Shown here: positions 1-16,659 of the stretch, piece by piece | Numbering within the stretch: position 1 is the first letter of the stretch | How the letters are laid out: every line of letters starts with the position of its first letter | From: an uncultured Clostridia bacterium | GTDB taxonomy: Bacteria; Bacillota; Clostridia; Lachnospirales; Anaerotignaceae | Direction: 5' to 3' | NCBI GenBank assembly: GCA_944384265.1 | Contig: CALWSR010000002.1 | Span: 40,361 to 104,360, forward strand | Length of the DNA stretch: 64,000 bases | Notes under the pieces: model-generated | Databases searched by the model: none | What the model saw: only the letters and a program-made list of their open reading frames with translations | Told to the model about the DNA's origin: nothing | Made by a program: the position numbers and the translations under genes

Positions 1-2
1 TG

Positions 3-452
3 CTGTATATTTTGTGGCGGCGGCAGCTTACTGTCGTTTCTGATAGGGTCCATATGACAAAAGGTAAAATCTATTTCTTGAAATCTGTCTTTTAACTCCA
101 GTGTCAGCTCTTCCAAATCCGTTCCCATTAAATCATCTATACACGTTACAAACAGCAGCATAGCTCTGGGCTTTTTTTTCAGCCTTTTTAAAACCAAGTC
201 CACTGCATCAAAAATCTGTTTTTCATATCCTCCTGATACCACATCCTTTTCTTCCAAAAAATAATATGCCAGCCTATTGCGATACCTGTGCAAAACTGAA
301 CTAATGGCTCCATGCCGCCCGCAAGCAGGAGGAGAAAAAAAGATTTGAAAGCTGTCGGGAACAGACATACCAATTCTTACCATTCCCCAGCCTCCATGGG
401 CAGGGGATGTATAGCACAGTGTTTTATGAAAACAATTCATACCTTTATCCAT
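3..452 (-). CDS. Nitrogenase component-1-like (NifD/K-like oxidoreductase) subunit, N-terminal 150 aa, truncated by window edge; absent from ORF track
   Basis: Hand translation [49 protein letters not shown]...[13 protein letters not shown]...CHMDPI. ATG at 452 overlaps the nifH-like stop, with a GGAGG RBS. The C-x-x-L-x-G-x-D and PxxC motifs are typical of component-1 proteins. Confidence 0.8.
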
Positions 453-1203
453 TGCATACCTCCAAAATTTTTTTTGCTAAATGCTCATAGCTCTGTGACA
501 TTTCAGAATCAGGAAAAGCTTCAATCACCGTTTTTGTTTCCGCCTCTGCCTTTTGTACAACACCGTTTCTTGGTATGCAAGCAATGATACTGCTTCCCAT
601 TTCCTGTGCTGCTTTTTCTGTTATCTCATATTCATTTTCAACATTTCTTTCATTCAAAATCATTCCGCCAAGCTTTGCATAATTGCGTGTTCCAAACTGA
701 TTGATGGCATATGCAATGTTGCTGGCTGCATAAAGTGCCATTGCCTCTCCGGAAGTCACAATAAATACATAATCTGCATAGCCTTGTCGTATCGGCATGG
801 CAAATCCACCGCAAACAACATCACCCAATACATCATACAGCACAATATCAGGTTGATATGTTTCATAAACCCCCAGTTCTTCCATTTTTTCAAAGGCTGT
901 AATAATTCCTCTTCCGGCACAGCCTATGCCCGGTGTGGGGCCTCCAGCCTCCACACAAAATGTTTTTCCATATCCAGGAAAAACAATATCTTCTTTTGTT
1001 ATATCATTGTCTTTCTTTCTCAACTGGTCAAGAACAGAAGGAATTTGATATCCAGCCAAATTTTTTGTGGAATCTGCCTTGGGGTCACAACCAACTTGCA
1101 GCACACGATAACCCATTAGGCTAAAAGCAGCTGAAAGATTTGATGTGGTGGTTGATTTCCCAATTCCGCCTTTACCATATATTGCTATTTTAATCACTTT
1201 CAT
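445..1203 (-). CDS. nifH: NifH/BchL/CfbC-family iron protein (nitrogenase-like reductase ATPase)
   Basis: [11 protein letters not shown]-loop, [22 protein letters not shown] and [16 protein letters not shown] with both 4Fe-4S Cys. Start moved to ATG 1203 (AAAGGAG RBS). Confidence 0.93.
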
Positions 1204-1230
1204 TTCTCCTTTATGTAATATCATTTTTGT

Positions 1231-2040
1231 CTATACAACTGCTGTATTTTTATCCTCTGCATTAAGGGTCATAGGTACAATGCCATAATAGCTTTTTACA
1301 GTTTCTTTCACTTGAACCACCTTTGCAGAGATATCAAAAAATTCTTTGATATTTTCCTGTGTAATAATATGATTGGTATCTCCAAATAAATATCCATCCG
1401 ACTTCAGCATCAGCGTCTTGTCACAACATCTTAATGCATTTGCCGGAAAATGTGTATTGATAATAATAGACAAATTTTGTCTATGAGAAAGCCTGTCCAA
1501 AATATCCAGCACCTTCAGTTGATTTTTCATATCTAAATTAGATTCAGGCTCATCTAAAACCAAAACCTTTGGCTCCTTTGCCAATGCTCTTGCAATCAGC
1601 ACCATTTGCAGCTGTCCTCCTGATAATTTGTTGCAGGAGCGCTCTGCTAAATCCTCCATACCCATTTCTTCCAATATGCTGTATGCAAGTGCAAAATCTT
1701 TTTTATTTGGCACATGGCCAAAAGAAATATATTGTGAACGTCCCATTACAACCATATTTAAAACGCTGTATCCAAACACTAGCTGCTTTGCCTGAGGTAC
1801 ATAGCTTACAAGCTTCCAAAATTCCGTAGGCTGCATTTGTTTTGTATTTTTGCCGTTTAGCAGCATTTTCCCTTCTTTCAGCTTTAAAAATCCCAGCATA
1901 CATCTTAAAAATGTTGTTTTCCCAATTCCATTGGCACCTAAAATGGATAATGTTTCTCCTGTTTTTATCTCAAAGGACAAATCTCTAAAAAGAAAATCAC
2001 TGTTATCATAATAAAATCCGGCCTGCTCTACTTTAATCAT
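1231..2040 (-). CDS. ABC transporter ATP-binding protein, iron-chelate/cobalamin (FepC/FecE) family
   Basis: Walker A GANGIGKT, LSGGQLQ signature, LDEPESNLD Walker B. Start MIKVEQ at 2040 overlaps the permease stop. Confidence 0.92.
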   Translation of the reverse strand: MIKVEQAGFYYDNSDFLFRDLSFEIKTGETLSILGANGIGKTTFLRCMLGFLKLKEGKMLLNGKNTKQMQPTEFWKLVSYVPQAKQLVFGYSVLNMVVMGRSQYISFGHVPNKKDFALAYSILEEMGMEDLAERSCNKLSGGQLQMVLIARALAKEPKVLVLDEPESNLDMKNQLKVLDILDRLSHRQNLSIIINTHFPANALRCCDKTLMLKSDGYLFGDTNHIITQENIKEFFDISAKVVQVKETVKSYYGIVPMTLNAEDKNTAVV

Positions 2041-3031
2041 CCCATACTCCTCCTGTTTTATGCAAAAGTATTGCAAAAATAGGCGCTCCAACCACTGCTG
2101 TCAGTATAGAAAGGGGTATTTCTGAGGCTGTTGCACTTCTTGCTAATGTATCAATTACCAGCAAAAATATCCCTCCTCCTAAACAATTTGCACTAAGCAA
2201 TACTCTATGGTCGTTTCCGCACAGCATACGCATCAAATGGGGAACTGCAAGCCCAACAAAAGCAATCACACCGCAAAATGAAACAGATACCGAGGCAATA
2301 ATGGTTGTTGTCACAATAATGAGCAGTCTTGTCTGTTTGATGTTGATTCCTAAAGATATGGCTTCATCCTCATTTAACGAAATCACATTCAAACGCCATC
2401 TTAATAGCCATAATATCACAATAGAAAGGGATATCAGAGGAACGGCTTTTATAATGTCGCCCCAAGACGTACCCGCCATACTGCCCATCAGCCAATATGT
2501 AATTGCCGGAAGCTTTTGTTCTGGGTCTGCTATAAATTTTATAAGTGATGTGAAGGCTTCAAATACTGCACCAACAATCACCCCTGAAAGCACAAGCATC
2601 AATATACTGCTTTGACCGTTTTTTCTGCTCATGCGATAAGTAATGAACATTCCCAAAAAACCCATAAGCGTTGCCAAAATTTGAATATAAAAAAATTGAT
2701 TCCATAACAAAATCCCCAATGCCGCTCCAAAGCCTGCACTGTAAGAAACCCCTAATGTATGGGCGCTTACTAAAGGATTGCCAAACATTGCCTGAAGACA
2801 GACGCCGGAAACAGACAATCCGGCGCCTATTACTACTGACATAATAATGCGTGGCAAACGAATATTCCAAACAACTGTATCCATCTGAGGATGGATTCCT
2901 CTTTGAAACAATGCTGCACTGATATCCTTTAAATTCATGCTGTATCGGCCTGCACACAGTGCGACCAATATGGCGGCAATCAAAATAACAAAAAGTACTG
3001 CGCAAACCCTCATTTGTTTTTGAAATTTCAT
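2033..3031 (-). CDS. FecCD/BtuC-family ABC permease
   Basis: IRLPRIIMSVVIGAGLSVSG..LQAMFGNPL, FVGLAVPH, EIPLSILTAVVGAPIF motifs; hydrophobic helices. Confidence 0.93.
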   Translation of the reverse strand: MKFQKQMRVCAVLFVILIAAILVALCAGRYSMNLKDISAALFQRGIHPQMDTVVWNIRLPRIIMSVVIGAGLSVSGVCLQAMFGNPLVSAHTLGVSYSAGFGAALGILLWNQFFYIQILATLMGFLGMFITYRMSRKNGQSSILMLVLSGVIVGAVFEAFTSLIKFIADPEQKLPAITYWLMGSMAGTSWGDIIKAVPLISLSIVILWLLRWRLNVISLNEDEAISLGINIKQTRLLIIVTTTIIASVSVSFCGVIAFVGLAVPHLMRMLCGNDHRVLLSANCLGGGIFLLVIDTLARSATASEIPLSILTAVVGAPIFAILLHKTGGVWDD

Positions 3032-3053
3032 TTATCTGCCAGCTCCTTTTAAA

Positions 3054-4223
3054 TTATCGTGAACTTCCAAAGGATGCGCCCTTTGCAGCCTCAGGGTTTG
3101 CAGCAAGAATACCCTCTGCTTGTTCCTGTGTCAGTGTATACTGATAAAATTCTTCATAATAGGATTTGATTTCTTCTACCATGTCATATGTAAATAAATC
3201 AGGATGAAGTGTTTGTGCCATCCATTTTGCCATTAAAGGCGCATCTCCTGATGGCGGAAACCAACGATATGTTCCCAAAGGCTCTTTAAACACTTTTCCA
3301 TTTTGCACTGCTGCAACCTGACTCCAATCCTGCCCTTCTATTGTATTGTTATAAAGGTCCTCAGGCATTGTTTCTGTAAATGTTGTAATCAAAATGATAT
3401 CCGGATTCCATTGATATACCTGCTCCATATTTACAATGGCATGTCCGCTGATTTCAGCTGCTGCATTGCTTCCGCCGGCCGATTCAATCCAAAATCCTCC
3501 ATAAAAATCATTTCCGCTTACACTAATTTCATCAGCACTATGCCCATACAAATAAAGTACCTTTGGCTTATCTTCTTCTGGTATTTGATTGACAACCTCT
3601 GCAATTTCTGACTGGACCTGTGTACCATACTCCAATACCTTGGCTGCATTTCCATTGTCGCTGTCTGTTCCAAACATGGTTCCCATAATTTCCAGCCAGC
3701 TTTCCATTGTTTTTAGTGCATCGCCCCCTGCTTGGGTTTTCACCCCTACCGCCGGAATGCCTGCTTCTGTCATAATATCATATTGATTTGTATATTCTGC
3801 CCAATACATCACCACATCCGGGTCCAGCTTAAGCAGCTCTTCAATGTTGATATCAAGCCCGTCAATAAAATTGCTTGGTACATTTACCAAATCCGGATAC
3901 ATTGATTTCATTACAGAGTTTTCAATGGCACTTGCAGACCCGGGATGCATTCCAACCAAATTTTCAATGGGTGCGCCGGTAATTGCATAAATGCTTGGCA
4001 ATGGCAGTGCTGTTAAAACCACTCTGGAAGCATCTTTTGGCACTTTTGCAGTCATATTATTTTGGTCTACAACCTCAATATAATTTTCAGCTGACGTTTC
4101 TTCTGATGATGCCGTTTGCAAAGAAGCCGCTTCCTCCTGCATGGTATCTGCTGCACTGCCGCAGCCTGCTGAAATTACCCCCAAGGCACAAATGACAGCA
4201 GCTAATACTACTCTTTTTTTCAT
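3054..4223 (-). CDS. Metal-chelate ABC substrate-binding lipoprotein (class III helical backbone)
   Basis: Signal peptide with lipobox SAGC, NIEELLKLDPDVV, VNMEQVYQWNPDII, AVQNGKVF motifs. Start at ATG 4223 (GAAAGGGG RBS). Confidence 0.9.
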   Translation of the reverse strand: MKKRVVLAAVICALGVISAGCGSAADTMQEEAASLQTASSEETSAENYIEVVDQNNMTAKVPKDASRVVLTALPLPSIYAITGAPIENLVGMHPGSASAIENSVMKSMYPDLVNVPSNFIDGLDINIEELLKLDPDVVMYWAEYTNQYDIMTEAGIPAVGVKTQAGGDALKTMESWLEIMGTMFGTDSDNGNAAKVLEYGTQVQSEIAEVVNQIPEEDKPKVLYLYGHSADEISVSGNDFYGGFWIESAGGSNAAAEISGHAIVNMEQVYQWNPDIILITTFTETMPEDLYNNTIEGQDWSQVAAVQNGKVFKEPLGTYRWFPPSGDAPLMAKWMAQTLHPDLFTYDMVEEIKSYYEEFYQYTLTQEQAEGILAANPEAAKGASFGSSR

Positions 4224-4272
4224 AAATTTGACCCCTTTCATTTATAAATTAGTGTTAGCTAACTTGTGTGAA

Positions 4273-4301
4273 ATATTACCAAATTATTAATAAAATGTCA
4301 A
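4273..4301 (-). promoter_or_regulatory. SigA-type promoter of the ABC/nitrogenase-like operon
   Basis: TTGACA (4301-4296), 17 bp spacer, TAATAT (4278-4273) on the minus strand. Confidence 0.7.
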
Positions 4302-4510
4302 TTGCAGGCTAAAAAAAGTTGTCTAAAACTAACTTCTTTTTTACTGTCCTAAAAGCTAAAATACATAATACGAAAAGAGCCATAGCATTCTATAATGTAT
4401 TGATAAAGATATGTTTGTTTCAATACGGATTCTATATTTCAAAGCATAAAAAACAAAAAAATTTTCGATTTTGTTACATAAAATTTATTTATCTAAAAAG
4501 ACTGAGATAT

Positions 4511-4544
4511 AAAAAACCGTCAAAGCAATTTGCTTTGGCGGTTT
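4511..4544 (-). terminator. Intrinsic terminator
   Basis: Stem AAACCGCCAAAGC/GCTTTGACGGTTT followed by a T run on the minus strand. Confidence 0.6.
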
Positions 4545-4831
4545 GATACATTTTTAAAATAATATGCAACACATAGCATATTATTTTATGTCAGTACATA
4601 AACAGATTTCTAAACCCTTCCTTCCGTCTTTTTTGTTTATAAAACATTATTGAGCCAGTTGGAATCATAAAAATAATAAAATTTATTCTATTTATTTCAA
4701 ACCATTATTTGATATACAATAGAACAACCACCTTTTTCATCATACAAAACACAAAACATTATTTGCCTGTCGCAGTATTTTCCTATTTCTAGTTTTTGCA
4801 AGCATTCTATAAAAGCTTTACTGCCAATTTT

Positions 4832-6259
4832 TTATTTTATTTTTTCCCAACCTGCATAAACAGCACTTTTTTCTTCCATGACAATTTCTGTTATGGGTTT
4901 TTTCAAATCTTTATCTGCATACCAGCCTGTAAAGCGATATCCCTTTTTTACAGGAACATATTCTGTCAGGTCTACTGTGGAGCCAACTGTTTTTCGTCTG
5001 GTAGCAACAGACACACTTTCATTGGGCAGCTTTCCGCCATTTCCATGAAATCTCAATATGCCCGCAGCAGGTCGTGGTTCCACATCACTATCCTCTGAAT
5101 AGCTTGCAGACACTGTACATGTAACGCTTTCCTGTTTTGTTGTGGCTGTAAACCTATAAAGTCCTAATTCATTTGGCAATAAAGCCTCCCAAGTATAAGG
5201 ACTTTTTTGTGTGAGTGTGATATATGGCCTATTACACGTTACATTTGCCTCCAAGCTTGTGGTCAATGTTACAACGCCGCCGCCATCTAAAAAAGTATCA
5301 TTTGGCTTAATGGTAAGCTCTTTTTGAAATATCCCTGGTTCGTTCCACCCAAGCTGTGCATATTTATATAATTCCTCCGGATATGTTGCAATGCTGTAAA
5401 TCCCCAAGCTTTCTCCCTCTTCACTATCCTGTACCATATCACGGATATTGCAGCGATATGGTACATCTTCTGTATATAAAGTGAACATAAATTCTCGTTT
5501 TAATACCTTTTCACCGGAAAGCATTCCTTTTTCTGCAATACAGCTTTCAAAACGCCAAGAAGTAACGTTTTCATTAAAAAAATCCATCAATGTTTTTATT
5601 TTTTCTTCTAAGTTCTCTGTGTTGTCTTTTGCTGTTTGAGCAAATAAATCATAAATATTTTGACTGTTTTCTGCTTTGGAAAGGGAAAGAAGTGTTTCCA
5701 TCCTATCCTGCTGGTATACTTCCTTTTGAGGATAAAAAATATAAATTCCCGGATTTTCCACTCCATAGCCGTAACAATCCTTTTTTAAATCCTCCGGATA
5801 AATAGAAATGCTGTAAAATCCCTCATTTTCTGTTTGGGCAGTGTCCATCCGTACCTCTCTAATGTCGCAAGCATAGGTAGTATCATCTGTATATAATAAA
5901 TAGCTATAATACTCCCTATCTTTTATATCATTTAATCTATAGCTTGCATCTCCCATTCCTGAAGAATATTCCCAAGATGTCATATTTTCATTTAAAAATT
6001 GTATCAATTCAGATATTTTAAATTGTAGATTTTCTGCATTTTCTTTTGCTGGCTGAGAAAAAATAGCATATATGTTCTCAGTATCCTTTTCCTCTACCAA
6101 ATTCAAAAAATTGCTCATTGTCTTTTCAGCAGTAGAAAACCCCCAATATTCTCCATCTACTATAAAATCAGTACGTTCTGGCTTATCTGGTAAAAAGAAT
6201 GAAAAAATAGATGAAAAAAATGCTATAACAGTAGTAAAAAGCATTACAATTATTTTCAT
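4832..6259 (-). CDS. Membrane-anchored protein with two DUF5104-like domains and a C-terminal InlB B-repeat (Listeria-Bacteroides repeat)
   Basis: N-terminal hydrophobic segment. Internal duplication (KDTENIYAIFSQPAKENAENLQFKISELIQF / ENSQNIYDLFAQTAKDNTENLEEKIKTLMDF). C-terminus FHGNGG..P.KKGYRFTGWY.D...VYAGW. Confidence 0.7.
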   Translation of the reverse strand: MKIIVMLFTTVIAFFSSIFSFFLPDKPERTDFIVDGEYWGFSTAEKTMSNFLNLVEEKDTENIYAIFSQPAKENAENLQFKISELIQFLNENMTSWEYSSGMGDASYRLNDIKDREYYSYLLYTDDTTYACDIREVRMDTAQTENEGFYSISIYPEDLKKDCYGYGVENPGIYIFYPQKEVYQQDRMETLLSLSKAENSQNIYDLFAQTAKDNTENLEEKIKTLMDFFNENVTSWRFESCIAEKGMLSGEKVLKREFMFTLYTEDVPYRCNIRDMVQDSEEGESLGIYSIATYPEELYKYAQLGWNEPGIFQKELTIKPNDTFLDGGGVVTLTTSLEANVTCNRPYITLTQKSPYTWEALLPNELGLYRFTATTKQESVTCTVSASYSEDSDVEPRPAAGILRFHGNGGKLPNESVSVATRRKTVGSTVDLTEYVPVKKGYRFTGWYADKDLKKPITEIVMEEKSAVYAGWEKIK

Positions 6260-6372
6260 AATATAGCCCCTTTCCTCATAAATGCAATATAAAAATGGAA
6301 GTGATGTCCATTGACAATGTTACGATATCAAAGACAAAAAATTTGAAAACTTACTGCCATACAAATATACAA

Positions 6373-7167
6373 TCATAGCTGCTGAGGGATTTCTTCTTTG
6401 CAATACTTTATACCGCTAAAAATACCTTCATCTCTTTCCTCCAGCTTAATCACAAATATTGTCCTTTCCTCCTCAGCATAAACACATCCACATACATTAT
6501 CTGTATAAAGTGATTTATATTTTTTGATGGCATTACGCTCAATTTTGTAAGCTTCTAAATTTTCTTCAAAAATTGTTTCTGAAACCCATCCATTTTTTTC
6601 TAATACATCCACTGCTGTTCCATACATTTCACATAATAAAGTATCACAAAGAACTTGCATCAAAAAATCAGATAAACTGTTTGTCCAAAGCTTCCATTCT
6701 GAAATGGAATCGCATTCATGATTCATGTATACAGGCGGGTCACTTTTCTCCAAATCTGCAACACAGATGCCAAACTTCACAACACCTGCGGCAAAATCAC
6801 TTCCAATGCACAAATAATCGGAAACTATGTTGCCCCAATGTTCTTTTGGAAGCTTATAAAACTGGAAATATTCATTTTTGATAGTGCCGTCAGAACAATT
6901 TTTCCAATGTTCTTTTTCTTCTGCTATCCTTTGCTCCATGTCATCATAAAAAAATGAAAAATATGGTTTATGGTTTACCCATATATCCGCAGTAGAAAAC
7001 AGAGAAGAATCTGCTGCCAAGCTTAAAAATTCCACTAGCATCGACGGCAAAGCCCTATTTTTTTGTTGGCTATCCATAATCATGTTATATTTCGGGATAG
7101 ATTTTTTGTATCCTAATTGCTCCAATATTTCAATTGCTGTTAAATTGTATGTATATTTCATATACAA
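6373..7167 (-). CDS. SMI1/KNR4 (SUKH)-like protein, possible immunity protein
   Basis: LPSMLVEFL near the N-terminus, YLCIGSD..GVVKFGI, DPPVY and NSLSDFL resemble SUKH motifs. Confidence 0.55.
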   Translation of the reverse strand: MYMKYTYNLTAIEILEQLGYKKSIPKYNMIMDSQQKNRALPSMLVEFLSLAADSSLFSTADIWVNHKPYFSFFYDDMEQRIAEEKEHWKNCSDGTIKNEYFQFYKLPKEHWGNIVSDYLCIGSDFAAGVVKFGICVADLEKSDPPVYMNHECDSISEWKLWTNSLSDFLMQVLCDTLLCEMYGTAVDVLEKNGWVSETIFEENLEAYKIERNAIKKYKSLYTDNVCGCVYAEEERTIFVIKLEERDEGIFSGIKYCKEEIPQQL

Positions 7168-7390
7168 ATTCCTCCTAATGTATCAGTGCTTTAAAGCAGG
7201 CTATATAGAAAAGCTTTTTTTGGAAAAAAGCTGTCATATAGTAGGGATATCAGACAATACCATATCATACAAATGAAATATGATAAGCTATTCTAAAAAA
7301 ATAGTGAATATGCAAATTTGCAATATCATCCATTTATGGTTTAATATAAGTATAACATATAATCAATCATTTTGAAAAAGGAGATAAAAA

Positions 7391-7705
7391 ATGAATAAAA
7401 ACCATGTTATTGATGAAAGCTTCATTTATGAAATACTTTCTGTCGTAGAAGAAATTCCAATAGGTCATGTGGCTACATACGGACAAATTGCACGATTGAT
7501 TGGCAGAGATAAAAATGCTCGTGTTGTTGGCAATGTTGTTGCACAGGCACATCATTATGGCCATTTTCCTTGTCACAGAGTTGTAAACTACGCAGGACGT
7601 TTAGCCCCTAACTGGCCGGAACAGGCCTTTTTATTACAACAAGAAGGTGTTCAATTAAAAGAAAATGGATATGTTGATTTAAAGCAATATCAATGGAATT
7701 GTTGA
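7391..7705 (+). CDS. MGMT / alkyltransferase-like DNA repair protein
   Basis: IPIGHVATYGQIA, ARVVG, PCHRVVN active-site motif, LLQQEGV. Confidence 0.9.
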   Translation: MNKNHVIDESFIYEILSVVEEIPIGHVATYGQIARLIGRDKNARVVGNVVAQAHHYGHFPCHRVVNYAGRLAPNWPEQAFLLQQEGVQLKENGYVDLKQYQWNC

Positions 7706-7740
7706 CACACAACCTATTATATATATACTATACATATCCG

Positions 7741-7900
7741 GGTGTCAAAAAAGTATCCCCCTGTCACCAAAAGCTCACATTTCATGCAAGCCTTTGGCGA
7801 GTAGACAGAAGTATAAAGCAGAGGTTCCATGGGCTAAAAGCCTTGAAACTCCTGCTTTTCCTCGCCGGAAATAAATTCCAACTCCTTTCGTGTGCCTGAA
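7741..7900. other. Structured non-coding segment, possible IS-end/MITE remnant
   Basis: Long imperfect hairpin GGCGAG..AAAGCAG..GGCT-AAA-AGCC..CTGCTTT..CTCGCC, preceded by GGGTGTCAAAAAAGT; GC-richer than its flanks. Confidence 0.35.
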
Positions 7901-8272
7901 AAAATATAAAATCTAGTTTTTCTACTGTATATAGTGTTTGTTTTTTCAATCTTCCATAGTGATTGCGGCCTTTACATTTAACAAATGACCTGCAATTTGG
8001 TTTTCGTATCATACCGCCTTGTGTTTTGATTACAATTTCATATGATTTTTCAAATCATATTTTGTATATATTTACAAATTATATATTGTAATATTTCTAT
8101 TTTTTGATACACTTATAATAGATAAGCTGTTATGAACTATTTTTTATTTTAAATAATATTTTTTATAAATTCACATTTTATTTACAAATATTACATATTC
8201 AATTCATATTTTAACAGTATAGTATAGACATACCCAATAAACATAGCAAAATTACATGACACTTCCCTAAAG

Positions 8273-12472: not shown

Positions 12473-13535
12473 ATTCTTTTTTTCCTTCTTTCCAACCCTT
12501 TTCCATGTAATACCTAAAAGCAGAAGGCAATGCATAGTGGCTGCGCATCTCTTCTTCTGTCACCCATACAAAATCACATTGCTTTCCTTCCAAGGCCTTT
12601 GCCTTTACAAAATATCCTTCCATATTCCATTGTATATGTGTAAAAATATGCTTTGCATTCCCCAATGGTTCCACTTTTCCACACAAAATTCCCCAGTCAA
12701 ATAGTTGCTGAAAAGGAGATATTTCTTCTTCTAACAATATATTGGGCAATTCCCATAAGTTTGACAGCAAGCCCTTTTGGGGTCTTTTGCACAATGCCAC
12801 TTTGTTCTCAAAAAGTATAAAAAACATCATACGATTTTCTACTTTTCTTGGCTTTTTTGGTGCCTTATAGGGAAAATCCATCATACGATTTTGCTGATAT
12901 GCCTGACAATACCCTTGCAATGGGCATATTTCACATTTTGGAACACCGTTTGGCAGACAAATCACTGCTCCCAGCTCCATCAAAGCCTGGTTAAAAATAC
13001 TGGGATTGGTATGCTGCAATAATTCCTTTATCCTATTATAAAAATCCTTTTTGACTTCTTTTTGTGTAATATCTCTGCCATCAGCAGTCAGTCGTGTCAT
13101 GACACGAAGTACATTGCCATCCACAGCCGCCTCCGGCAGTCCAAAAGCAATGGAAGAAATTGCCCCTGCTGTATATTCCCCAATGCCTTTTAATTTTAAT
13201 AATTTTTCATAGGACATAGGCAGCTGTCCCTGATACTGCTCCATGATTTCTATGGCAGCTTTTTGCATATTTTTTACTCTATTATAATATCCAAGCCCCT
13301 GCCACAGCTTCAAAAGTCTTTCCTCAGATGCTTCCGACAACGCTTTTATAGTTGGCAGCTCCTGCATAAAACGGATATAATATTCTTTCACAGCCTCTAC
13401 CCTTGTCTGCTGGAGCATAATTTCTGATACCCATACACCATAGGCAGTCGGTTCTTTTCTCCAAGGCAGCTCACGGGCATATAATTGATACCATTGTGTC
13501 AATGGTTTTATCATTTTTTTCAATTTTATATACAC
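12462..13535 (-). CDS. mutY: A/G-specific adenine glycosylase MutY
   Basis: LPWR..YGVWVSEIMLQQT, WQGLGYY, HhH LKGIGEYTAGAI, VDGNVLRV, FeS motif C.PNGVPKCEICPL..YC. True start may be 13523 or 13514. Confidence 0.95.
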   Translation of the reverse strand: MYIKLKKMIKPLTQWYQLYARELPWRKEPTAYGVWVSEIMLQQTRVEAVKEYYIRFMQELPTIKALSEASEERLLKLWQGLGYYNRVKNMQKAAIEIMEQYQGQLPMSYEKLLKLKGIGEYTAGAISSIAFGLPEAAVDGNVLRVMTRLTADGRDITQKEVKKDFYNRIKELLQHTNPSIFNQALMELGAVICLPNGVPKCEICPLQGYCQAYQQNRMMDFPYKAPKKPRKVENRMMFFILFENKVALCKRPQKGLLSNLWELPNILLEEEISPFQQLFDWGILCGKVEPLGNAKHIFTHIQWNMEGYFVKAKALEGKQCDFVWVTEEEMRSHYALPSAFRYYMEKGWKEGKKEYEF

Positions 13536-13544
13536 CTCTATACA

Positions 13545-13578
13545 AAATGCCCGATTGCAGTATTGCTATCGGGCATTT
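13545..13578 (-). terminator. Terminator after purH
   Basis: AAATGCCCGAT...ATCGGGCATTT inverted repeat. Confidence 0.7.
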
Positions 13579-13591
13579 ATTTTTTTATTTT

Positions 13592-15148
13592 TTAATGTCT
13601 AAAATGACGCATACCTGTAAATACCATTGCAATGCCTGCCGCATCACAGGCATCAATAGATTCTTGGTCCCGTACAGAACCGCCGGGCTGTATGATTGCT
13701 GTAATACCGGCCTTTGCACAAGCCTCTACACAGTCAGAAAATGGGAAAAAGGCATCAGAAGCCAATACAGCTCCCTTTACAGTGTCTGCTCCCAAATGAT
13801 TTGTGCCATGCTCAATGGCTTGTTCACAAGCCCATATTCTGTTGACCTGTCCCGGACCAACACCAACAGATTGTTTGTTCTTTCCAATGGCAATGCCGTT
13901 TGATTTTACGTATTTTACAATTTTCCATGTAAAAAGCAAATCCTCCATTTCTTTCTCTGTTGGTTTCCGTTTTGTCACCACTTTCAAATCCTGCTCTATG
14001 AACAAAGCATTGTCCACATCCTGCACCAATATACCGCCGGAAACCTTTTTCATGTCCAAAGCCCCTACCGGTTGTTTTTGCTGTATGCCTTCCAGTGTCA
14101 TAATGCGGATGTTTTTCTTTTGTTTTAACACTTCCAAAGCATCCTCAGCAAAGGAAGGTGCCAATATGATTTCTACAAATATTTTGCTGATTTCTTCTGC
14201 GGTTTTTTTGTCAATCTCTCTGTTTGACACAATAATACCGCCAAAAATAGAAACAGGGTCAGATTCATATGCTTTCCTATAAGCTTCATAAATGGTATCT
14301 GCACTGCCCACACCACAGGGATTTGCGTGTTTGCAGGCTACAATGGTAGGCTCTGTATATTCTTTAAGTAGTTCCAATGCACCGTTTGTGTCATTGATAT
14401 TGTTAAATGAAAGCTCTTTGCCATGCAGCTGCACAGCATTTGTAAGCGCCCCTTCGTTTGCTCCCACTTCTTTATAAAATGCTGCATTTTGATGTGGATT
14501 TTCGCCATAACGCATTTGCTGTACCTTTTCATAGGTAAAGGTCAATGTATCGGGAAATTGTTCTATACCAGCTTGTTTTTTCATATAGCCGGCAATCAGG
14601 CTGTCATAGTGAGAAGTGTGCATAAATACCTTTGTGCTGAGATAAAACTTTGTGTCAAGGGAAATTTCATTTCTCTCTTTCAATTCTGCAATCACTTTGC
14701 CATAATCAGCAGGGTCAATCACCACGGCCACATCCTGATAATTTTTTGCTGCCGCACGAATCATGGTAGGCCCGCCAATATCAATGTTTTCAATGGCTTC
14801 CTCTCTTGTTACCCCCGGCTTTAATATGGTTTGCTTAAAGGGATATAAATTGACTACAACCATATCAATGGTATCAATGCCCAAATCAGAAAGCTGTTTC
14901 ATATGCTCTTGATTTCCTCTTATTGCCAGAATACCTGCATGAATAGAAGGATGCAGTGTTTTTACCCGACCGTCCAAGCACTCCGGAAAATTGGTTATGT
15001 CAGAAATGCCAATGACAGCAATTCCTGCGTTTTTTAATGCCTGATAAGTTCCTCCCGTAGAAATGATTTCTACCCCCAAGGAGGAAAGCTCCTTTGCAAA
15101 ATCTATGATTCCTGTTTTGTCAGACACACTAATCAATGCACGTTTCAT
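13592..15148 (-). CDS. purH: Bifunctional AICAR transformylase / IMP cyclohydrolase
   Basis: [57 protein letters not shown]. True start 15148 (GGAGG RBS); the ORF-track extension is riboswitch sequence. Confidence 0.97.
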
Positions 15149-15187
15149 AAAAATAGCCTCCTTCATACAATCCATGTCATCTACAAC

Positions 15188-15227
15188 GAAAAAACCACCT
15201 GGGACATATTTTAATTTGCCCAGGCGG
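15188..15227 (-). terminator. Riboswitch expression-platform terminator
   Basis: CCGCCTGGG..CCCAGGTGG followed by TTTTTT; overlaps the aptamer 3' stem. Confidence 0.85.
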
Positions 15228-15287
15228 TCGGCTTTTTCATTTGTACTCCCTGTGGTTTTTCCACTTCCGCCAGTCATACAAATGCTT
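15215..15287 (-). ncRNA. ZMP/ZTP riboswitch (pfl motif)
   Basis: GACTGGCGGAAGTGGAAAAACCACAGGGAG...AAAAAGCCGACCGCCTGGGCA directly upstream of purH matches the pfl consensus as recalled. Confidence 0.92.
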
Positions 15288-15324
15288 CATTCTTTTTTCA
15301 TTATATACTATTTTTTGTCATCTA

Positions 15325-16659
15325 TCAACCTAAAATTAATTTCAATAAAAATAATAGTGCAATAATGATAATAACAGGATTCAATTCCTTTGCTCTGCCT
15401 GTAAACAGCTTTAATAAAACATAAGAAATGGTGCCAAATACCAAGCCTTCTGAAATACTATATGCCACCACCATCATCAATATGGTGATAAAAGCAGGAA
15501 AACCCTCTGTATAATCAGAAAATGTAATGTTTGTTACATTTTCCAGCATAAATAACCCCACTACAATCAATGCCGGTGCTGTTGCAAAGGATGGTATGAC
15601 TGAAATGACAGGTGTAAAAATCAATGCCACCAAAAACAATATACCTGCTGTAAAAGAAGTCAGCCCTGTTCTGCCGCCGTCAGCCACACCGGAAGCACTT
15701 TCCACAAATGTTGTGACCGTAGAGGTACCCAGCACTGCTCCTGCTGTGGTGCCAATGGCGTCTGCAAACAATGCTCCTTTGATTTTAGGCAGCTTGCCAT
15801 CCTTGTCCAAAAATCCTGCTTTAGAAGAAACACCTATCAGTGTGCCTAATGTATCAAACAAATCTACAAATAAAAATGCAAATACAATGACAACAAAATC
15901 AAATGAAAATACAAAGCTAAAATCCATTTTCATAGCAATGGGTGCCAGAGATGGCGGTGCAGAGATGATACCACTGGGTATCAAAGAATACATACCCGCT
16001 TCCGGATTGACCGTATACAGCCCTGCCAGCTGACAGAGAATGCCCAATACATATGTTGCAAGAATGCCCCAAAGCAACGCCCCTTTTATTTTTTTGATAA
16101 CAAATACCATAGTAATAATGGTCCCAAACAATGCCAGTGCAACAGGCACAGTTTTGACATCACCCAATGCAACCAATGTAGCAGAATCTACAATAATTCC
16201 TGCATTTTGCATTCCGATAAATGCAATAAAAAGTCCAATTCCTACACTGGTTGCTGACTTCATATTTTTAGGGATTGCATTAAATATCATCTCTCGCACA
16301 TTTACCATGGATAACAATATAAATATAATACCTTCCACAAATACTGCTGCCAGTGCAACCCTCCAGTCATATCCATACTGCCCCACTACGGTATAAGCAA
16401 AATATGCATTTAGGCCCATACCAGGAGCCAGTGCAAAAGGATAGTTTGAAAAAAATGCCATACAAAATGTACCAATGGCTGCTGCCACTGCTGTTGCTGT
16501 CAGCAATGCCCCTGAATCCATACCCGTTGCCCCCAATACACTGGGATTGACAATGAGGATATATGCCATTGTCATAAATGTTGTCAGGCCTGCCATCAGT
16601 TCTGTTTTTACAGTTGTGTTGTTTTGTTTCAATTGAAAACACTTTTCTAATAATTCCAC
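15325..16659 (-). CDS. NCS2 family purine permease (PbuG/AzgA-like)
   Basis: ELMAGLTTFMTMAYILIVNP, LAPGMGLNAYF, DLFDTLGTL, FVESASGVADGGRTGL. Confidence 0.93.
   Translation of the reverse strand: MELLEKCFQLKQNNTTVKTELMAGLTTFMTMAYILIVNPSVLGATGMDSGALLTATAVAAAIGTFCMAFFSNYPFALAPGMGLNAYFAYTVVGQYGYDWRVALAAVFVEGIIFILLSMVNVREMIFNAIPKNMKSATSVGIGLFIAFIGMQNAGIIVDSATLVALGDVKTVPVALALFGTIITMVFVIKKIKGALLWGILATYVLGILCQLAGLYTVNPEAGMYSLIPSGIISAPPSLAPIAMKMDFSFVFSFDFVVIVFAFLFVDLFDTLGTLIGVSSKAGFLDKDGKLPKIKGALFADAIGTTAGAVLGTSTVTTFVESASGVADGGRTGLTSFTAGILFLVALIFTPVISVIPSFATAPALIVVGLFMLENVTNITFSDYTEGFPAFITILMMVVAYSISEGLVFGTISYVLLKLFTGRAKELNPVIIIIALLFLLKLILG

Follow-up and report, generated by a model that had tools for sequence, protein, structure and literature searches.

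A six-gene unit of a chicken-gut Clostridia bacterium that may couple import of a metal chelate to a nitrogenase-like reductase

What would a gut anaerobe do with a nitrogenase-like reductase whose genes follow directly on those of an ABC importer? The question is raised by a locus at the left end of a 64,000-nucleotide stretch of DNA (the window) from an uncultured Clostridia bacterium of the chicken gut. Nitrogenase-like NifH/NifEN-like genes of Clostridia have been found co-located with ABC transporters by Dos Santos et al. 2012, who proposed that metal transport is coupled to cofactor assembly (PMC3464626); the "undescribed system" of the preliminary description of this DNA had thus been sighted before. 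No assigned function for such gene sets was found in the literature. Mise et al. 2021 use the term "pseudo-nifH" for genes without annotated nifD/K partners, over half of which are found in Clostridia (PMC8597730). The Fe protein of the present locus, NflH, fits this term because its partner genes are annotated merely as "nitrogenase component 1".

The operon comprises six genes on the minus strand, in the order SBP lipoprotein, FecCD permease, ABC ATPase, nflH, nflD and nflK. Its features, from 5' to 3', are as follows.

4514..4544, minus strand: terminator-like hairpin, stem of 14 pairs and then a T run
4273..4301, minus strand: sigma-70-type promoter match, TTGACA (4301-4296), 17-nt spacer, TG-extended TAATAT (4278-4273)
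4248..4263, minus strand: operator-like palindrome GTTAGCTAACACTAAT, one mismatch to GTTAG-N6-CTAAC (16 bp)
3054..4241, minus strand: SBP lipoprotein gene (Peripla_BP_2, E 3e-23)
2033..3031, minus strand: FecCD-family permease gene, 332 aa (FecCD, E 1.6e-83)
1231..2040, minus strand: ABC ATPase gene, 269 aa (ABC_tran)
445..1224, minus strand: nflH, NifH-like Fe protein (Fer4_NifH, E 1.3e-94)
1..452, minus strand: 5' part of nflD, first 150 codons (Oxidored_nitro), leaving the window at its left end
L001:10773-12059: full nflD, 428 aa, extending past the left window end
L001:12079-13266: nflK, NifK/N-like, 395 aa, beyond the left window end

All five genes of the preliminary description, namely those of the binding lipoprotein, the permease, the ATPase and the NifH-like and NifD/K-like proteins, were recovered in place; its gene count has to be raised by one, as nflK lies outside the window. 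Contig L001 is identical to the window (100% over 11,224 bases), so that the complete nflD and nflK can be read past the window edge. The overlapping starts and stops described earlier are 8-nt overlaps at the permease/ATPase and nflH/nflD junctions. The remaining gaps between genes in the window measure 22 nt and 6 nt, nflK follows nflD after 19 nt, and an AGGAG-type ribosome-binding site precedes each gene. From these tight junctions and the single sizeable gap, the six genes would be co-transcribed. Downstream of nflK, contig L001 carries an IS remnant, a truncated miaB-like gene and an integrase; the reported lack of nifB, nifE/N and nifS held there as well. A scan of ten further long ORFs in the window showed housekeeping or unrelated genes.

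NflH conserves the Walker A motif GKGGIGKS, the switch regions and the cluster cysteines C102 and C138 (259-aa numbering) and is predicted to be a NifH-like ATP-dependent Fe protein. Its probable start is GTG 1197 (250 aa), with AGGAG 8 nt upstream, 1224 being the alternative. The protein is 53% identical to NifH of C. pasteurianum and 49% to MarH; the top curated model is CfbC (339 bits; cut-off 402), and nifH and BchL give 336 bits (cut-off 394) and 216 bits (cut-off 345), respectively. NflD and NflK reach 30-68 bits with the nitrogenase models, the cut-offs of which are 486-654 bits. With all scores against the curated Nif/Vnf/Anf/Bch/Cfb models far below cut-off (NifH/D/K/E/N, BchL/N/B, CfbC/D), nitrogenase, DPOR/COR and CfbCD were rejected as identities, and MAR, whose proteins are matched only weakly, was rejected likewise; the earlier reading of an import-and-reduce module that does not fix N2 thereby survived both refutations named for it, nifBEN beyond the left window end and a place in a characterised clade.

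NflD is a NifD/NifE-like subunit. Across 75-80 orthologues, the only conserved cysteines are C44 and C104 of NflD, both within its window-encoded part, and C32 and C53 of NflK; over the last 230 residues of NflD neither a Cys nor a His is conserved, and among the conserved residues of NflD and NflK there are no FeMo-cofactor ligands. NflD C104 aligns with NifE C124 and NflK C32 with NifE C62, whereas NflD C44 corresponds to NifE C62 only when a 5-residue gap is assumed. Two cysteines per subunit would suffice for one interfacial [4Fe-4S] cluster. Among solved structures, the closest relatives by sequence and profile are NifE for NflD and NifEN for NflK. NflD finds NifE at 1e-4 as a single sequence and at 1.5e-18 as a profile, the profile also reaching MarD (1.5e-11) and no DPOR subunit at E < 1e-3, while the fold is about equally far (TM 0.6-0.7) from NifK, NifN, NifE, MarD and BchN.

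Several known systems share parts of this design. DPOR (BchLNB/ChlLNB) and COR (BchXYZ) are likewise three-component enzymes, combining an ATP-dependent Fe protein with a heterotetramer that holds a single interfacial [4Fe-4S] cluster, operate without NifB and act on a metal-bearing macrocycle, to which the substrate proposed for Nfl may be likened. However, NflD and NflK score only 14-52 bits with their models (cut-offs > 400), the DPOR cluster is bound by three Cys and one Asp whereas the Nfl candidates are all Cys, DPOR has no dedicated importer, and the nfl module has no photosynthesis context. CfbCD, with its all-cysteine [4Fe-4S] cluster and its multi-electron reduction of a metal tetrapyrrole, resembles what is proposed for Nfl. 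Yet CfbD is a single homodimeric subunit where Nfl has two distinct ones, its model gives 21.7 bits with NflK (cut-off 268) and no match with NflD, cfbABE are absent at the nfl locus, and the bacterial hosts of nfl do not synthesise F430. In NifEN, the interfacial [4Fe-4S] cluster is held by Cys of both subunits, a pattern resembled by that of Nfl, but NflD and NflK reach 54-68 bits against a cut-off of 505 and come without an L-cluster site, NifB or a client nitrogenase. MarBHDK, IsrBHDK and the Group VI Nfl proteins of Elusimicrobia are, like the present module, non-N2-fixing members of the superfamily. Group VI is similar also in that NifB is absent and no more than four of the six P-cluster cysteines are kept; its NflH is, however, ~40% identical to NifH (53% here), and its genes are surrounded by radical SAM genes instead of an ABC importer.

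The likelier start of the SBP is ATG 4223 (389 aa) rather than 4241; from there, the predicted signal peptide MKKRVVLAAVICALGVISAG would precede the C of a lipobox (...VISAGC), and the protein is predicted to be the substrate-binding lipoprotein of a type II (FecCD/BtuCD-type) ABC importer. The ATPase starts at ATG 2040 inside the end of the permease gene, with AGGAGG 8 nt upstream. Architecture and Pfam families are shared with the cluster-A SBP importers BtuCD-F, HmuTUV, FhuDBC, NiuBDE/CeuE, MolBC-A and YiuABC; unlike these, the present importer reaches no curated equivalog cut-off, the permease scoring best with BtuC, FecD and FhuB, all below cut-off, and the ATPase with a heme ABC ATPase model (152 bits; cut-off 261). 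The best solved relative of the SBP by sequence is 4ovk of Veillonella parvula (7e-59), which has no assigned ligand. An AF2 model (pLDDT 84) is nearest in fold to 4ovk, the molybdate/tungstate binder MolA, 4hn9, YiuA (iron-catecholate) and H. pylori CeuE (Ni-His2). Many Trp and Tyr residues are conserved across the SBP family. To our knowledge, none of the named type II importers occurs in an operon with a nitrogenase-like enzyme.

Relatives of NflD were found in 254 species genomes of Clostridia, Treponema and Synergistaceae, many of which stem from the guts of herbivores and termites. Of the 81 loci compared, 65 carry all six genes side by side, in two gene orders and three phyla, and 14 of the other 16 loci are interrupted by contig ends. 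This is far beyond chance, and the persistence of the synteny across phyla and gene orders supports a functional coupling of importer and reductase. In 11/80 loci the module has FeoAB, DtxR-like, Fur-like or flavodoxin genes as neighbours, by a rough estimate an enrichment of about two-fold. In ~10 loci the module is joined by a trio of a HypB/UreG-like GTPase, a soluble ABC ATPase and a cytoplasmic SBP_bac_6 protein. Neither a nifB-like gene nor recurring tetrapyrrole biosynthesis or cfb genes nor a conserved client enzyme was seen in the module neighbourhoods.

The hairpin at 4544..4514, which closes the upstream gene for a DUF5104 protein (6259..4832), sets the 5' limit of the operon. The single SigA promoter of the preliminary description exists as a consensus match only (4301..4273; 10/12 positions plus TG) in the operon's one sizeable intergenic gap, downstream of the hairpin; such matches are hereabouts no commoner than in shuffled sequence. 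The palindrome GTTAGCTAACACTAAT starts 10 nt past the -10 hexamer and 40 nt ahead of ATG 4223, and in the closest relative sharing the gene order (L007) an exact copy lies 39 nt ahead of the SBP start. In 1.34 Mb of related loci, GTTAG-N6-CTAAC occurs in 96 exact copies versus 1.2 expected, almost all of them immediately 5' of the six-gene module. A Crp/Fnr-like regulator gene adjoins the module in 21 loci, and its phylogeny covaries with the operator type; the palindrome's most probable binder is therefore a regulator of this family, which in the present genome would be encoded elsewhere. The operator is also found 5' of feoAB and flavodoxin operons (L034, L061, L012). Fur-type boxes are present in a few lineages, with a weak enrichment (8/76 upstream regions at ≤3 mismatches versus ~5% background). 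A scan of the window and of 14 related loci for cobalamin and other riboswitches gave no match.

The explanation preferred here, at a probability of roughly 0.45, is that of a self-contained unit in which a chelate would be imported and then reduced by NflHDK at the expense of ATP, likely freeing iron under anaerobic conditions. Of the import-and-reduce module proposed in the preliminary description, the non-N2-fixing affiliation and, by synteny, the coupling to the importer stand, whereas the reduction chemistry and the substrate are what we infer. The lipoprotein would capture a metal chelate at the cell surface, and the FecCD permease with its ATPase would carry it into the cytoplasm. There, hydrolysis of MgATP by the NflH dimer would drive low-potential electrons, probably obtained from ferredoxin or flavodoxin, into NflD/NflK. 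This complex would possess neither a P-cluster nor a FeMo-co-like cofactor, but only a single [4Fe-4S] cluster at the interface of the two subunits with Cys44 and Cys104 of NflD and Cys32 and Cys53 of NflK as candidate ligands, and the cluster would reduce the chelate held in the usual cofactor/substrate cavity of the family. The likeliest purpose would be anaerobic iron release from a chelate beyond the reach of ordinary reductases, either an iron tetrapyrrole such as haem, whose ring would undergo a reduction like those by DPOR, COR and CfbCD, or a ferric siderophore-type complex of very low potential, which would undergo an Fe3+ to Fe2+ step. Transcription would start at the sigma-70-type promoter and be gated by the operator just past the -10 box.

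Hints at metal, and at iron in particular, are the operator before feoAB and flavodoxin operons, the iron-gene neighbours, the Fur boxes and the GTPase trio, as well as the nearest solved SBPs, which bind small metal complexes or haem. Precedents for the reading are the tetrapyrrole reductases DPOR, COR and CfbCD, which likewise have a simple [4Fe-4S] cluster and no NifB, and ISR with its proposed importer. The link to iron is thin, with an only about two-fold neighbour enrichment and weak enrichment of Fur boxes, and the co-regulated flavodoxin could be just the electron donor of NflH. Further points against the preferred explanation are that the classical binders of haem or B12 are not among the nearest solved SBPs, of which the best match has no assigned ligand; that the NflD profile is nearer to the maturase NifE than to tetrapyrrole reductase subunits; that a one-electron reduction of ferric iron hardly seems to warrant three subunits and ATP; that conserved Cys or His residues hinting at iron, haem or Fe-S sensing are missing from the Crp/Fnr-like regulator; and that at least one close SBP homologue, in Treponema sp. 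OMZ 840, stands without adjacent nfl genes.

The same components could serve tetrapyrrole salvage or remodelling apart from iron, a corrinoid, chlorophyll breakdown product or other macrocycle being imported and its ring double bonds reduced by NflHDK to make or recycle a cofactor. According to PMC13474568, the characterised NifB-less relatives with a simple [4Fe-4S] cluster (DPOR, COR, CfbCD) all reduce tetrapyrroles; the BtuC and CfbC models, the Trp- and Tyr-rich SBP family and the many carriers from guts rich in plant pigments point the same way. The B12 importers of these phyla, however, usually have a riboswitch, for which no match was seen here, and with the lack of recurring tetrapyrrole genes nearby, of BtuF or haem binders among the closest solved SBPs, and of DPOR subunits among the matches of the NflD profile at E < 1e-3, this alternative is rather doubtful. 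Somewhat less probable still is a role in metallocofactor assembly as put forward by Dos Santos et al. 2012 (PMC3464626), in which NflDK would be a NifEN-like scaffold, NflH its maturase partner, and the importer, with or without the GTPase, the supplier of metal for the cofactor of another enzyme. It agrees with the best scores of NflD and NflK (NifE/NifEN models and structures), with the NifEN-like cysteine pattern, with the G3E metallochaperone-type GTPase and with MolA as second structural match of the SBP. Against this stand the missing NifB-like radical SAM gene, precursor ligands of the L-cluster type and client enzyme, the occurrence of the trio in just ~1/8 of the loci, and a dedicated high-affinity importer and regulator, which are more typical of nutrient acquisition.

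A MAR- or ISR-like reaction, cleaving a small organic or organometallic nutrient taken up by the ABC system, would find a precedent in ISR, whose induction goes along with that of a proposed sulfonate ABC importer of the same genomic region (PMC11423573, PMC13474568), and support in the MarH and MarD matches. It is nevertheless improbable: MAR and most Group IV enzymes keep P-cluster cysteines and, as does ISR, come with NifB homologues and sulfur-metabolism genes, none of which is seen at nfl. MAR also carries P-like and L-like clusters; moreover, FecCD/Peripla_BP_2 importers are not known for sulfonates or thioethers. Finally, an unusual N2-fixing nitrogenase, for which the identity of NflH to true NifH and the N2 fixation by Nfa of Group IV (PMC13474568) might speak, is effectively refuted by four of six P-cluster cysteines and both FeMo-co ligands missing, by the lack of nifB/E/N/V and by the low NflD/NflK scores.

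The closest match to the present gene set in the literature is given by uncharacterised NifH/NifEN-like clades of Firmicutes and methanogens, with Mlab_1040/1039, Dhaf_1539/1540, CLM_0808/0809 and Clostridium cellulovorans as examples (PMC3464626). These strict anaerobes have a NifH-like gene and two divergent NifE/N-like genes, absent FeMo-co ligands and co-located ABC transporters, all as in nfl; one clade has Cys at the positions of NifD C88 and C154 and NifK C95, which matches the nfl pattern, and an identical cysteine pattern is reported for other nitrogenase-like clades (PMC3464626). Judging from this description, the nfl genes would belong to exactly these clades. To the state of 2012, the present analysis adds C53 of NflK, the near-universal six-gene synteny in three phyla, an operator that is paired with a Crp/Fnr-like regulator, and a set of accessory genes.

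Positions 1-4301 of the window are occupied by a compact row of genes on the minus strand, in which the genes of an ABC importer are followed by those of nitrogenase-like proteins. The latter are termed here NflH (NifH-like Fe protein), NflD (NifD/E-like subunit), and NflK (NifK/N-like subunit), and SBP stands for the substrate-binding lipoprotein of the importer. The features, in window coordinates, are the following.

4544..4514, minus strand: terminator-like hairpin of the preceding gene, in the sole real intergenic space upstream of the module
4301..4273, minus strand: pattern match to a promoter, TTGACA-17-TG-TAATAT
4263..4248, minus strand: operator-like palindrome GTTAGCTAACACTAAT, with one mismatch, 10 bases after the -10 box and 40 nt before ATG 4223
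4241 or, more likely, 4223..3054, minus strand: SBP gene (Peripla_BP_2), product of 389/395 aa
3031..2033, minus strand: FecCD permease gene
2040..1231, minus strand: ABC ATPase gene
1224..445, minus strand: nflH, encoding the NifH-type Fe protein; a 250-aa product from GTG 1197 is likely
452, minus strand: start of nflD (Oxidored_nitro), which exits the window at the left

The junctions within the window are gaps of 22 and 6 nt and two overlaps of 8 nt, and each module gene starts behind a Shine-Dalgarno sequence of its own; the 250-aa form of NflH is favoured because AGGAG lies 8 nt ahead of GTG 1197. The SBP carries a lipoprotein signal peptide, MKKRVVLAAVICALGVISAG directly followed by C, and a low-complexity linker. 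Promoter-type pattern matches are not enriched in the AT-rich region upstream of the module. From this anatomy, the module genes are predicted to be co-transcribed. The public sequencing runs that hold the sequence are of chicken-gut origin or unlabelled, and their coverage is even and DNA-like.

Among public contigs, 21 encode the NifH-like protein. A 253-kb contig from ENA (L001), which is 100% identical to the window across 11,224 bases and extends to the left of it, contains the complete nflD (428 aa) and, 19 bases on, nflK (395 aa), a second Oxidored_nitro gene; the operon therefore comprises six genes. The preliminary description had taken the locus for an import-and-reduce module from the non-N2-fixing part of the nitrogenase superfamily, and this view is compatible with the sequence left of the window, where nifB, nifE, and nifN are absent within 9.5 kb. 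None of nifB, nifE/N, nifV, and nifS follows nflK on L001, nor do nifB, nifE, or nifN recur among the conserved neighbours of 80 related loci. What follows nflK is about 1.3 kb with a transposase remnant, then a cut miaB-like gene and an integrase (L001 coordinates).

13266-16646: region 3' of nflK, left of the window
about 13995-14147: IS-type transposase remnant
14601-15257: miaB/UPF0004-like gene, truncated inside the radical SAM CxxxCxxC motif, with a tyrosine integrase next to it

A mobile element appears to have inserted into a methylthiotransferase gene 3' of nflK.

In a search with one genome per GTDB species, a relative of NflD was found to be encoded in 254 species. The best 80 of these 254 loci were fetched, and their ORFs were called and searched with the six window proteins. 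On the side of the Clostridia, the carriers among the 80 loci are Lachnospiraceae, Oscillospiraceae, Clostridium butyricum, C. porci, Hungatella, Lacrimispora, Faecalispora, Tissierella, and Syntrophomonas; treponemes (including T. saccharophilum and the oral T. lecithinolyticum) and Synergistaceae (including Fretibacterium) carry the module as well. All six genes are adjacent in 65 of 81 loci, that is, the best 80 and L001. Among the 16 loci lacking full adjacency, 14 are cut by a contig end and one has a broken SBP region; in one locus, no importer gene was detected in the 2.7 kb of contig after NflK. The commonest order is H-D-K-SBP-permease-ATPase, the importer-first order being found in the window, its closest relatives, and also Tindallia, and a dozen loci encode a second SBP. 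Since the six genes are kept together through rearrangement and across three phyla, the module is a functional unit. For the transporter the linkage is not absolute, because Treponema sp. OMZ 840 encodes a close SBP homologue without adjacent nfl genes. A profile search of 1.84 billion representative proteins returned 476 clusters at 50% identity (E <=1e-30), including proteins of 800-870 aa. Five such NflD-family members (P0271, P0336, P0349, P0357, and P0363) give two profile matches each and appear to be NflD-NflK fusions of natural origin; these would argue for D and K in a 1:1 complex.

Membership in the nitrogenase superfamily is evident from the combination of a NifH-type Fe protein (Fer4_NifH, 1.3e-94) with partner subunits that both match Oxidored_nitro. 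NflH is a conventional Fe protein: in 78 orthologues, the Walker A motif with K18, the switch residues, both cluster cysteines (C102 and C138), and R105 adjoining the first of them are all conserved. Its identity to NifH of Clostridium pasteurianum is 53% and to MarH 49%, and it stays below every curated cut-off (given in brackets), with 339 bits for CfbC (402), 336 for nifH (394), 216 for BchL (345), and 190 for BchX (331). The partner subunits are far more remote, reaching 14-68 bits on curated models with cut-offs of roughly 270-1,200 bits. Searched as single sequences against solved structures, NflD finds NifE at 1e-4 at best and NflK finds NifEN at 4.5e-10. A profile of 35 NflD sequences ranks NifE (1.5e-18) ahead of VnfD (3e-12) and MarD (1.5e-11), and no DPOR chain is reached at E 1e-3 or below. 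An AF2 model of NflD (pLDDT 88.8) resembles the folds of NifK, NifN, NifE, MarD, and BchN about equally well (TM 0.6-0.7). The NflD/NflK pair is a deep NifEN-like branch of the superfamily and lies outside Nif/Vnf/Anf, DPOR/COR, CfbCD, and MAR; this placement is based on curated-model cut-offs, profile-versus-PDB searches, and fold comparison. The PDB identities of the MAR structures were confirmed.

The cysteines that are conserved across 75-80 orthologues are solely C44 and C104 of NflD and C32 and C53 of NflK. C104 of NflD aligns with NifE C124 (= NifD C154) and C32 of NflK with NifE C62 (= NifK C95, NifN C44). C44 of NflD would correspond to NifE C62 (= NifD C88), given a 5-residue gap that was assumed because the printed alignment starts just past C44. 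At the position of NifE C124/NifD C154, NflK has a Pro, and its fourth conserved cysteine of the set, C53, is without counterpart in nitrogenase. In the region of the FeMo-co ligands (NifD Cys275 and His442), no Cys or His is kept at >=90% in residues 200-428 of NflD among 80 orthologues. Four cysteines from two subunits, in the absence of NifB, are most simply explained by a single [4Fe-4S] cluster between D and K, the arrangement of DPOR, CfbCD, and NifEN.

Upstream of the module, a 16-bp palindrome, GTTAG-N6-CTAAC, is common to Clostridia, Treponema, and Synergistaceae. Exact copies number 96 in 1.34 Mb of loci versus 1.2 expected from shuffles (maximum 3), and nearly all of them lie at most about 300 nt upstream of the first module gene or of a preceding regulator gene, often in pairs. 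L007, the nearest relative sharing the gene order of the window, has an exact copy at 39 nt. The copy in the window spans roughly +4 to +19, and this is a position typical of repression. The feoAB and flavodoxin operons of three loci (L034, L061, and L012) are also preceded by the GTTAG operator, and the palindrome looks like the signal of an undescribed regulon. In L034, from a member of the Syntrophomonadaceae, the flavodoxin gene behind the operator is followed by a 284-aa ORF (L034:3587-4441) whose product weakly resembles NflD in its C-terminal half and matches no curated family.

A gene of the Crp/Fnr family (cNMP_binding and HTH_Crp_2) directly adjoins nflH in 21 of the 80 loci. In a tree of these regulators, one clade has five members, from Cellulosilyticum, C. 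butyricum, Tissierella, and one MAG; their loci (L016, L017, L019, L056, and L060) are without a GTTAG site and instead have TGTnT-N6-AnACA-type, ATGTCTCAAATGAGACAT-like palindromes upstream of nflH. The remaining regulator loci have the GTTAG site in 16 of 16 cases. This co-variation of regulator clade and operator type points to the Crp/Fnr-like protein as the probable binder of GTTAG-N6-CTAAC. The protein has no conserved Cys or His, and a sensor of the FNR or CooA type was rejected for this reason. The half-sites of the palindrome resemble the DtxR/IdeR box; a DtxR-like binder stays a minor alternative, such repressors being encoded nearby in 6-7 loci versus 21 for the Crp/Fnr-like protein with its tree-operator co-variation. 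Fur boxes were rejected as the general regulatory element, as they are weakly enriched and confined to a few lineages; good ones occur in loci of Syntrophomonas, Cellulosilyticum, and Tissierella, the box of Tissierella L056, TATCATTATCATTATCATT, being near-perfect. In the 64-kb window, no Crp/Fnr-like, G3E GTPase, Fur-like, or flavodoxin gene was found, and the DtxR-like and FeoB profiles gave marginal matches.

Systems of the FecCD/Peripla_BP_2 type transport siderophores, haem, corrinoids, Ni-histidine, and oxyanions. The module encodes a complete type II ABC importer, with a Peripla_BP_2 SBP, a FecCD permease, and an ABC_tran ATPase together, and none of its proteins reaches the cut-off of the substrate-specific equivalogs BtuF/C/D, HmuV, FecB-E, FhuB-D, and IsdE. 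Among solved structures, the SBP is closest to Veillonella parvula 4ovk (7e-59), an entry with no assigned ligand; 4hn9, MolA (HI1472), 4pag, YiuA, and H. pylori CeuE with Ni-His2 come next, and HmuT, IsdE, and BtuF rank lower. Genes adjoining the module encode FeoAB in 4 loci, DtxR-like proteins in 6-7, Fur-family proteins in 3, and flavodoxin in 4, together in 11 of 80 loci; flavodoxin may be linked to the module simply as its electron donor. About 10 loci (L022, L030, L036, L037, L050, L053, L056, L058, L059, and L086) have an accessory trio beside the six genes: a GTPase of the HypB/UreG/CobW type that bears a CxxCxxC motif at its C-terminus, an ABC-type ATPase that is soluble and lacks a membrane domain, and an SBP_bac_6 protein without a signal sequence. 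The trio may serve to hand over metal in the cytoplasm. ABC exporter-type pairs beside some loci were considered as YbtPQ/IrtAB-like siderophore importers and dismissed, since they gave just generic MsbA/CydDC-type matches. Riboswitches or other known RNAs were found neither in positions 1-8000 of the window (E <=1) nor, at gathering scores, in 14 related loci, which weakens the case for corrinoid or Mo-cofactor-linked import. According to PMC13474568, the [4Fe-4S]-only, NifB-less nitrogenase-like enzymes DPOR, COR, and CfbCD all reduce metal tetrapyrroles, and ISR is described there and in PMC11423573 as co-induced with a proposed ABC importer of its substrate from the same genomic region. 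Taken together, transporter type, SBP, neighbours, RNA elements, and family precedent favour a metal chelate as substrate, with a lean toward iron, and they fit haem-like tetrapyrroles and low-potential ferric chelates alike.

The module would represent a nitrogenase-like reductase wired to a chelate importer, and the probability that it imports and reduces a metal chelate or tetrapyrrole is put at about 70%. The lipoprotein SBP would capture the chelate, and the type II importer would take it up. The NflH dimer, charged with MgATP, would dock on (NflDK)2 and in each cycle pass a single electron to the [4Fe-4S] cluster at the interface, which would reduce the bound chelate, with the result that the metal is released or the macrocycle altered. 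In loci that encode them, the G3E GTPase and the SBP-like protein of the cytoplasm may take over the metal. Anaerobic iron release as the purpose of the module is a tentative proposal, in which haem-type and siderophore-type substrates carry roughly equal weight. Less likely than not is the proposal that NflHDK is an ATP-driven "dechelating reductase", by which haem or a very low-potential ferric or other metal chelate would be reduced after import so that strict anaerobes could strip the metal without oxygen, under control of the Crp/Fnr-type regulator via GTTAG-N6-CTAAC.

Import and reduction of a chelate have to be weighed against other functions of the superfamily. True N2 fixation would agree with the close kinship of NflH and NifH but is very improbable from the sequence: both FeMo-co ligands are missing, and the P-cluster set of six cysteines found in Mo/V/Fe nitrogenases (NifD C62, C88, and C154; NifK C70, C95, and C153) is incomplete in NflD/NflK, which score 30-68 bits on the nifD, nifE, and N2-ase-Ialpha models (cut-offs 486-654). 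Cleavage of the MAR/ISR type has a parallel in the importer of ISR. MAR and ISR are recognised by cysteines of the P-cluster type, a neighbouring NifB homologue (MarB/IsrB), and surrounding genes of sulfur assimilation, whereas the conserved neighbours of the module include neither a radical SAM NifB-like gene nor sulfur genes; MarD (9fmg/9d9u) is reached by NflK just at 3.4e-5 and by the NflD profile at the value quoted before, and ISR was set apart by description. Remodelling of a pigment or corrinoid would follow the tetrapyrrole precedent of the family. DPOR and COR ligate their cluster by three Cys and one Asp and stand in a pigment-synthesis context, neither of which is seen here, and NflD/NflK reach 14-52 bits on the BchN and BchB models (cut-offs 324-912). 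CfbCD differs in its single homodimeric D subunit and the cfb context of methanogens and ANME, as opposed to two distinct subunits and bacterial hosts; on the CfbD model TIGR03282, NflK scores 21.7 bits (cut-off 268) and NflD gives no match.

With Group VI Nfl of Elusimicrobia, compared by description, the module shares a reduced cysteine set (at most 4 of 6 P-cluster Cys in Group VI) and the lack of NifB; the Group VI NflH, however, is about 40% identical to NifH, sister to BchL, and found in radical SAM-rich surroundings, in contrast to 53% identity and ABC importer neighbours here. The module agrees with the "NifH/NifEN-like" clades, uncharacterised and found in Firmicutes and methanogens, of Dos Santos et al. 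2012 (PMC3464626), in which the E/D-like subunit has two Cys and the N/K-like subunit one. [quoted passage not shown] The rival function proposed in 2012, NifEN-like cofactor assembly, accords with the leaning of the NflD and NflK searches toward NifE and NifEN; it has to be set beside loci that lack nifB and join their reductase genes to an importer.

The sighting of nitrogenase-like genes next to ABC transporters is not new, having been reported for Clostridia and methanogens in 2012 (PMC3464626). Apparently new are the breadth and constancy of the six-gene unit, a fourth conserved cysteine, the operator and its probable regulator, the accessory metallochaperone-type genes, and the exclusion of riboswitch control for the window and 14 loci. 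A full-text literature search returned no assigned function for a module of the NflHDK type; the methanogen papers PMC9431491 and PMC11484787 and the selenoprotein and mlp-cluster papers have no bearing on it. North and Shafaat, in their 2026 review, still list clades without assigned function, and the sections of it that were consulted do not treat the NflHDK clade. In an expression table for C. difficile ribotype 078 (PMC11633334), a NifH gene is two locus tags away from an iron ABC permease, both being listed among iron-related differentially expressed genes, and the pair could belong to a related module of a pathogen. No mention of the gene is made in the iron-regulon paper on C. difficile, supplements included.

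Each of the solved nitrogenase-like enzymes (DPOR, COR, CfbCD, MAR, and ISR) has revealed new chemistry. The clade described here is unusually tractable, with its own importer, a dedicated and recognisable operator, cultivable hosts among gut Clostridia and Treponema, and a wide spread. As the module is hard-wired to its importer, the SBP is a direct handle on the substrate and a direct experimental route to it. If the substrate were haem or a siderophore, this would bear on oxygen-free iron release from strong chelates and on competition for iron in the gut. A dechelating reductase, if it proves true, would add a new reaction class to the nitrogenase superfamily. It would also give the microbiota of gut, oral, termite, and digester habitats a new and widespread means of anaerobic iron piracy, under a Crp/Fnr-type regulator that had not been recognised before. 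According to Mise et al. (PMC8597730), more than half of the "pseudo-nifH" genes in public genomes are from Clostridia. The NifH-like genes of the NflH family are plausibly part of this pool. They probably contribute to the "pseudo-nifH" signal by which the number of nitrogen fixers in metagenomes from gut and sediment is overestimated.

Ten further long ORFs of the window were scanned, and all are housekeeping or unrelated genes, among them purH, guaA, mutY, a PTS system, a GH1 glycosidase, and a restriction-modification methylase. The gene directly upstream of the module (4832-6259, minus strand), which has its own terminator, encodes a DUF5104/Flg_new protein of 475 aa composed of two internally repeated halves (ENIYAIFSQPAKENAENLQFKISELIQFLNENMTSWEYSS versus QNIYDLFAQTAKDNTENLEEKIKTLMDFFNENVTSWRFES). 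Nearly the whole of a 513-aa protein (24020-25561, plus strand) is made up of Sel1 repeats (13 repeats, Pfam E 6e-162), which is unusual for a housekeeping region of a gut Firmicute. A fused restriction-modification-type protein of 729 aa (36262-38451, plus strand) combines HTH_17, N6_Mtase/Eco57I, and a TaqI_C specificity domain; its gene lies in a low-GC stretch (about 30% GC) that is probably a defence island.
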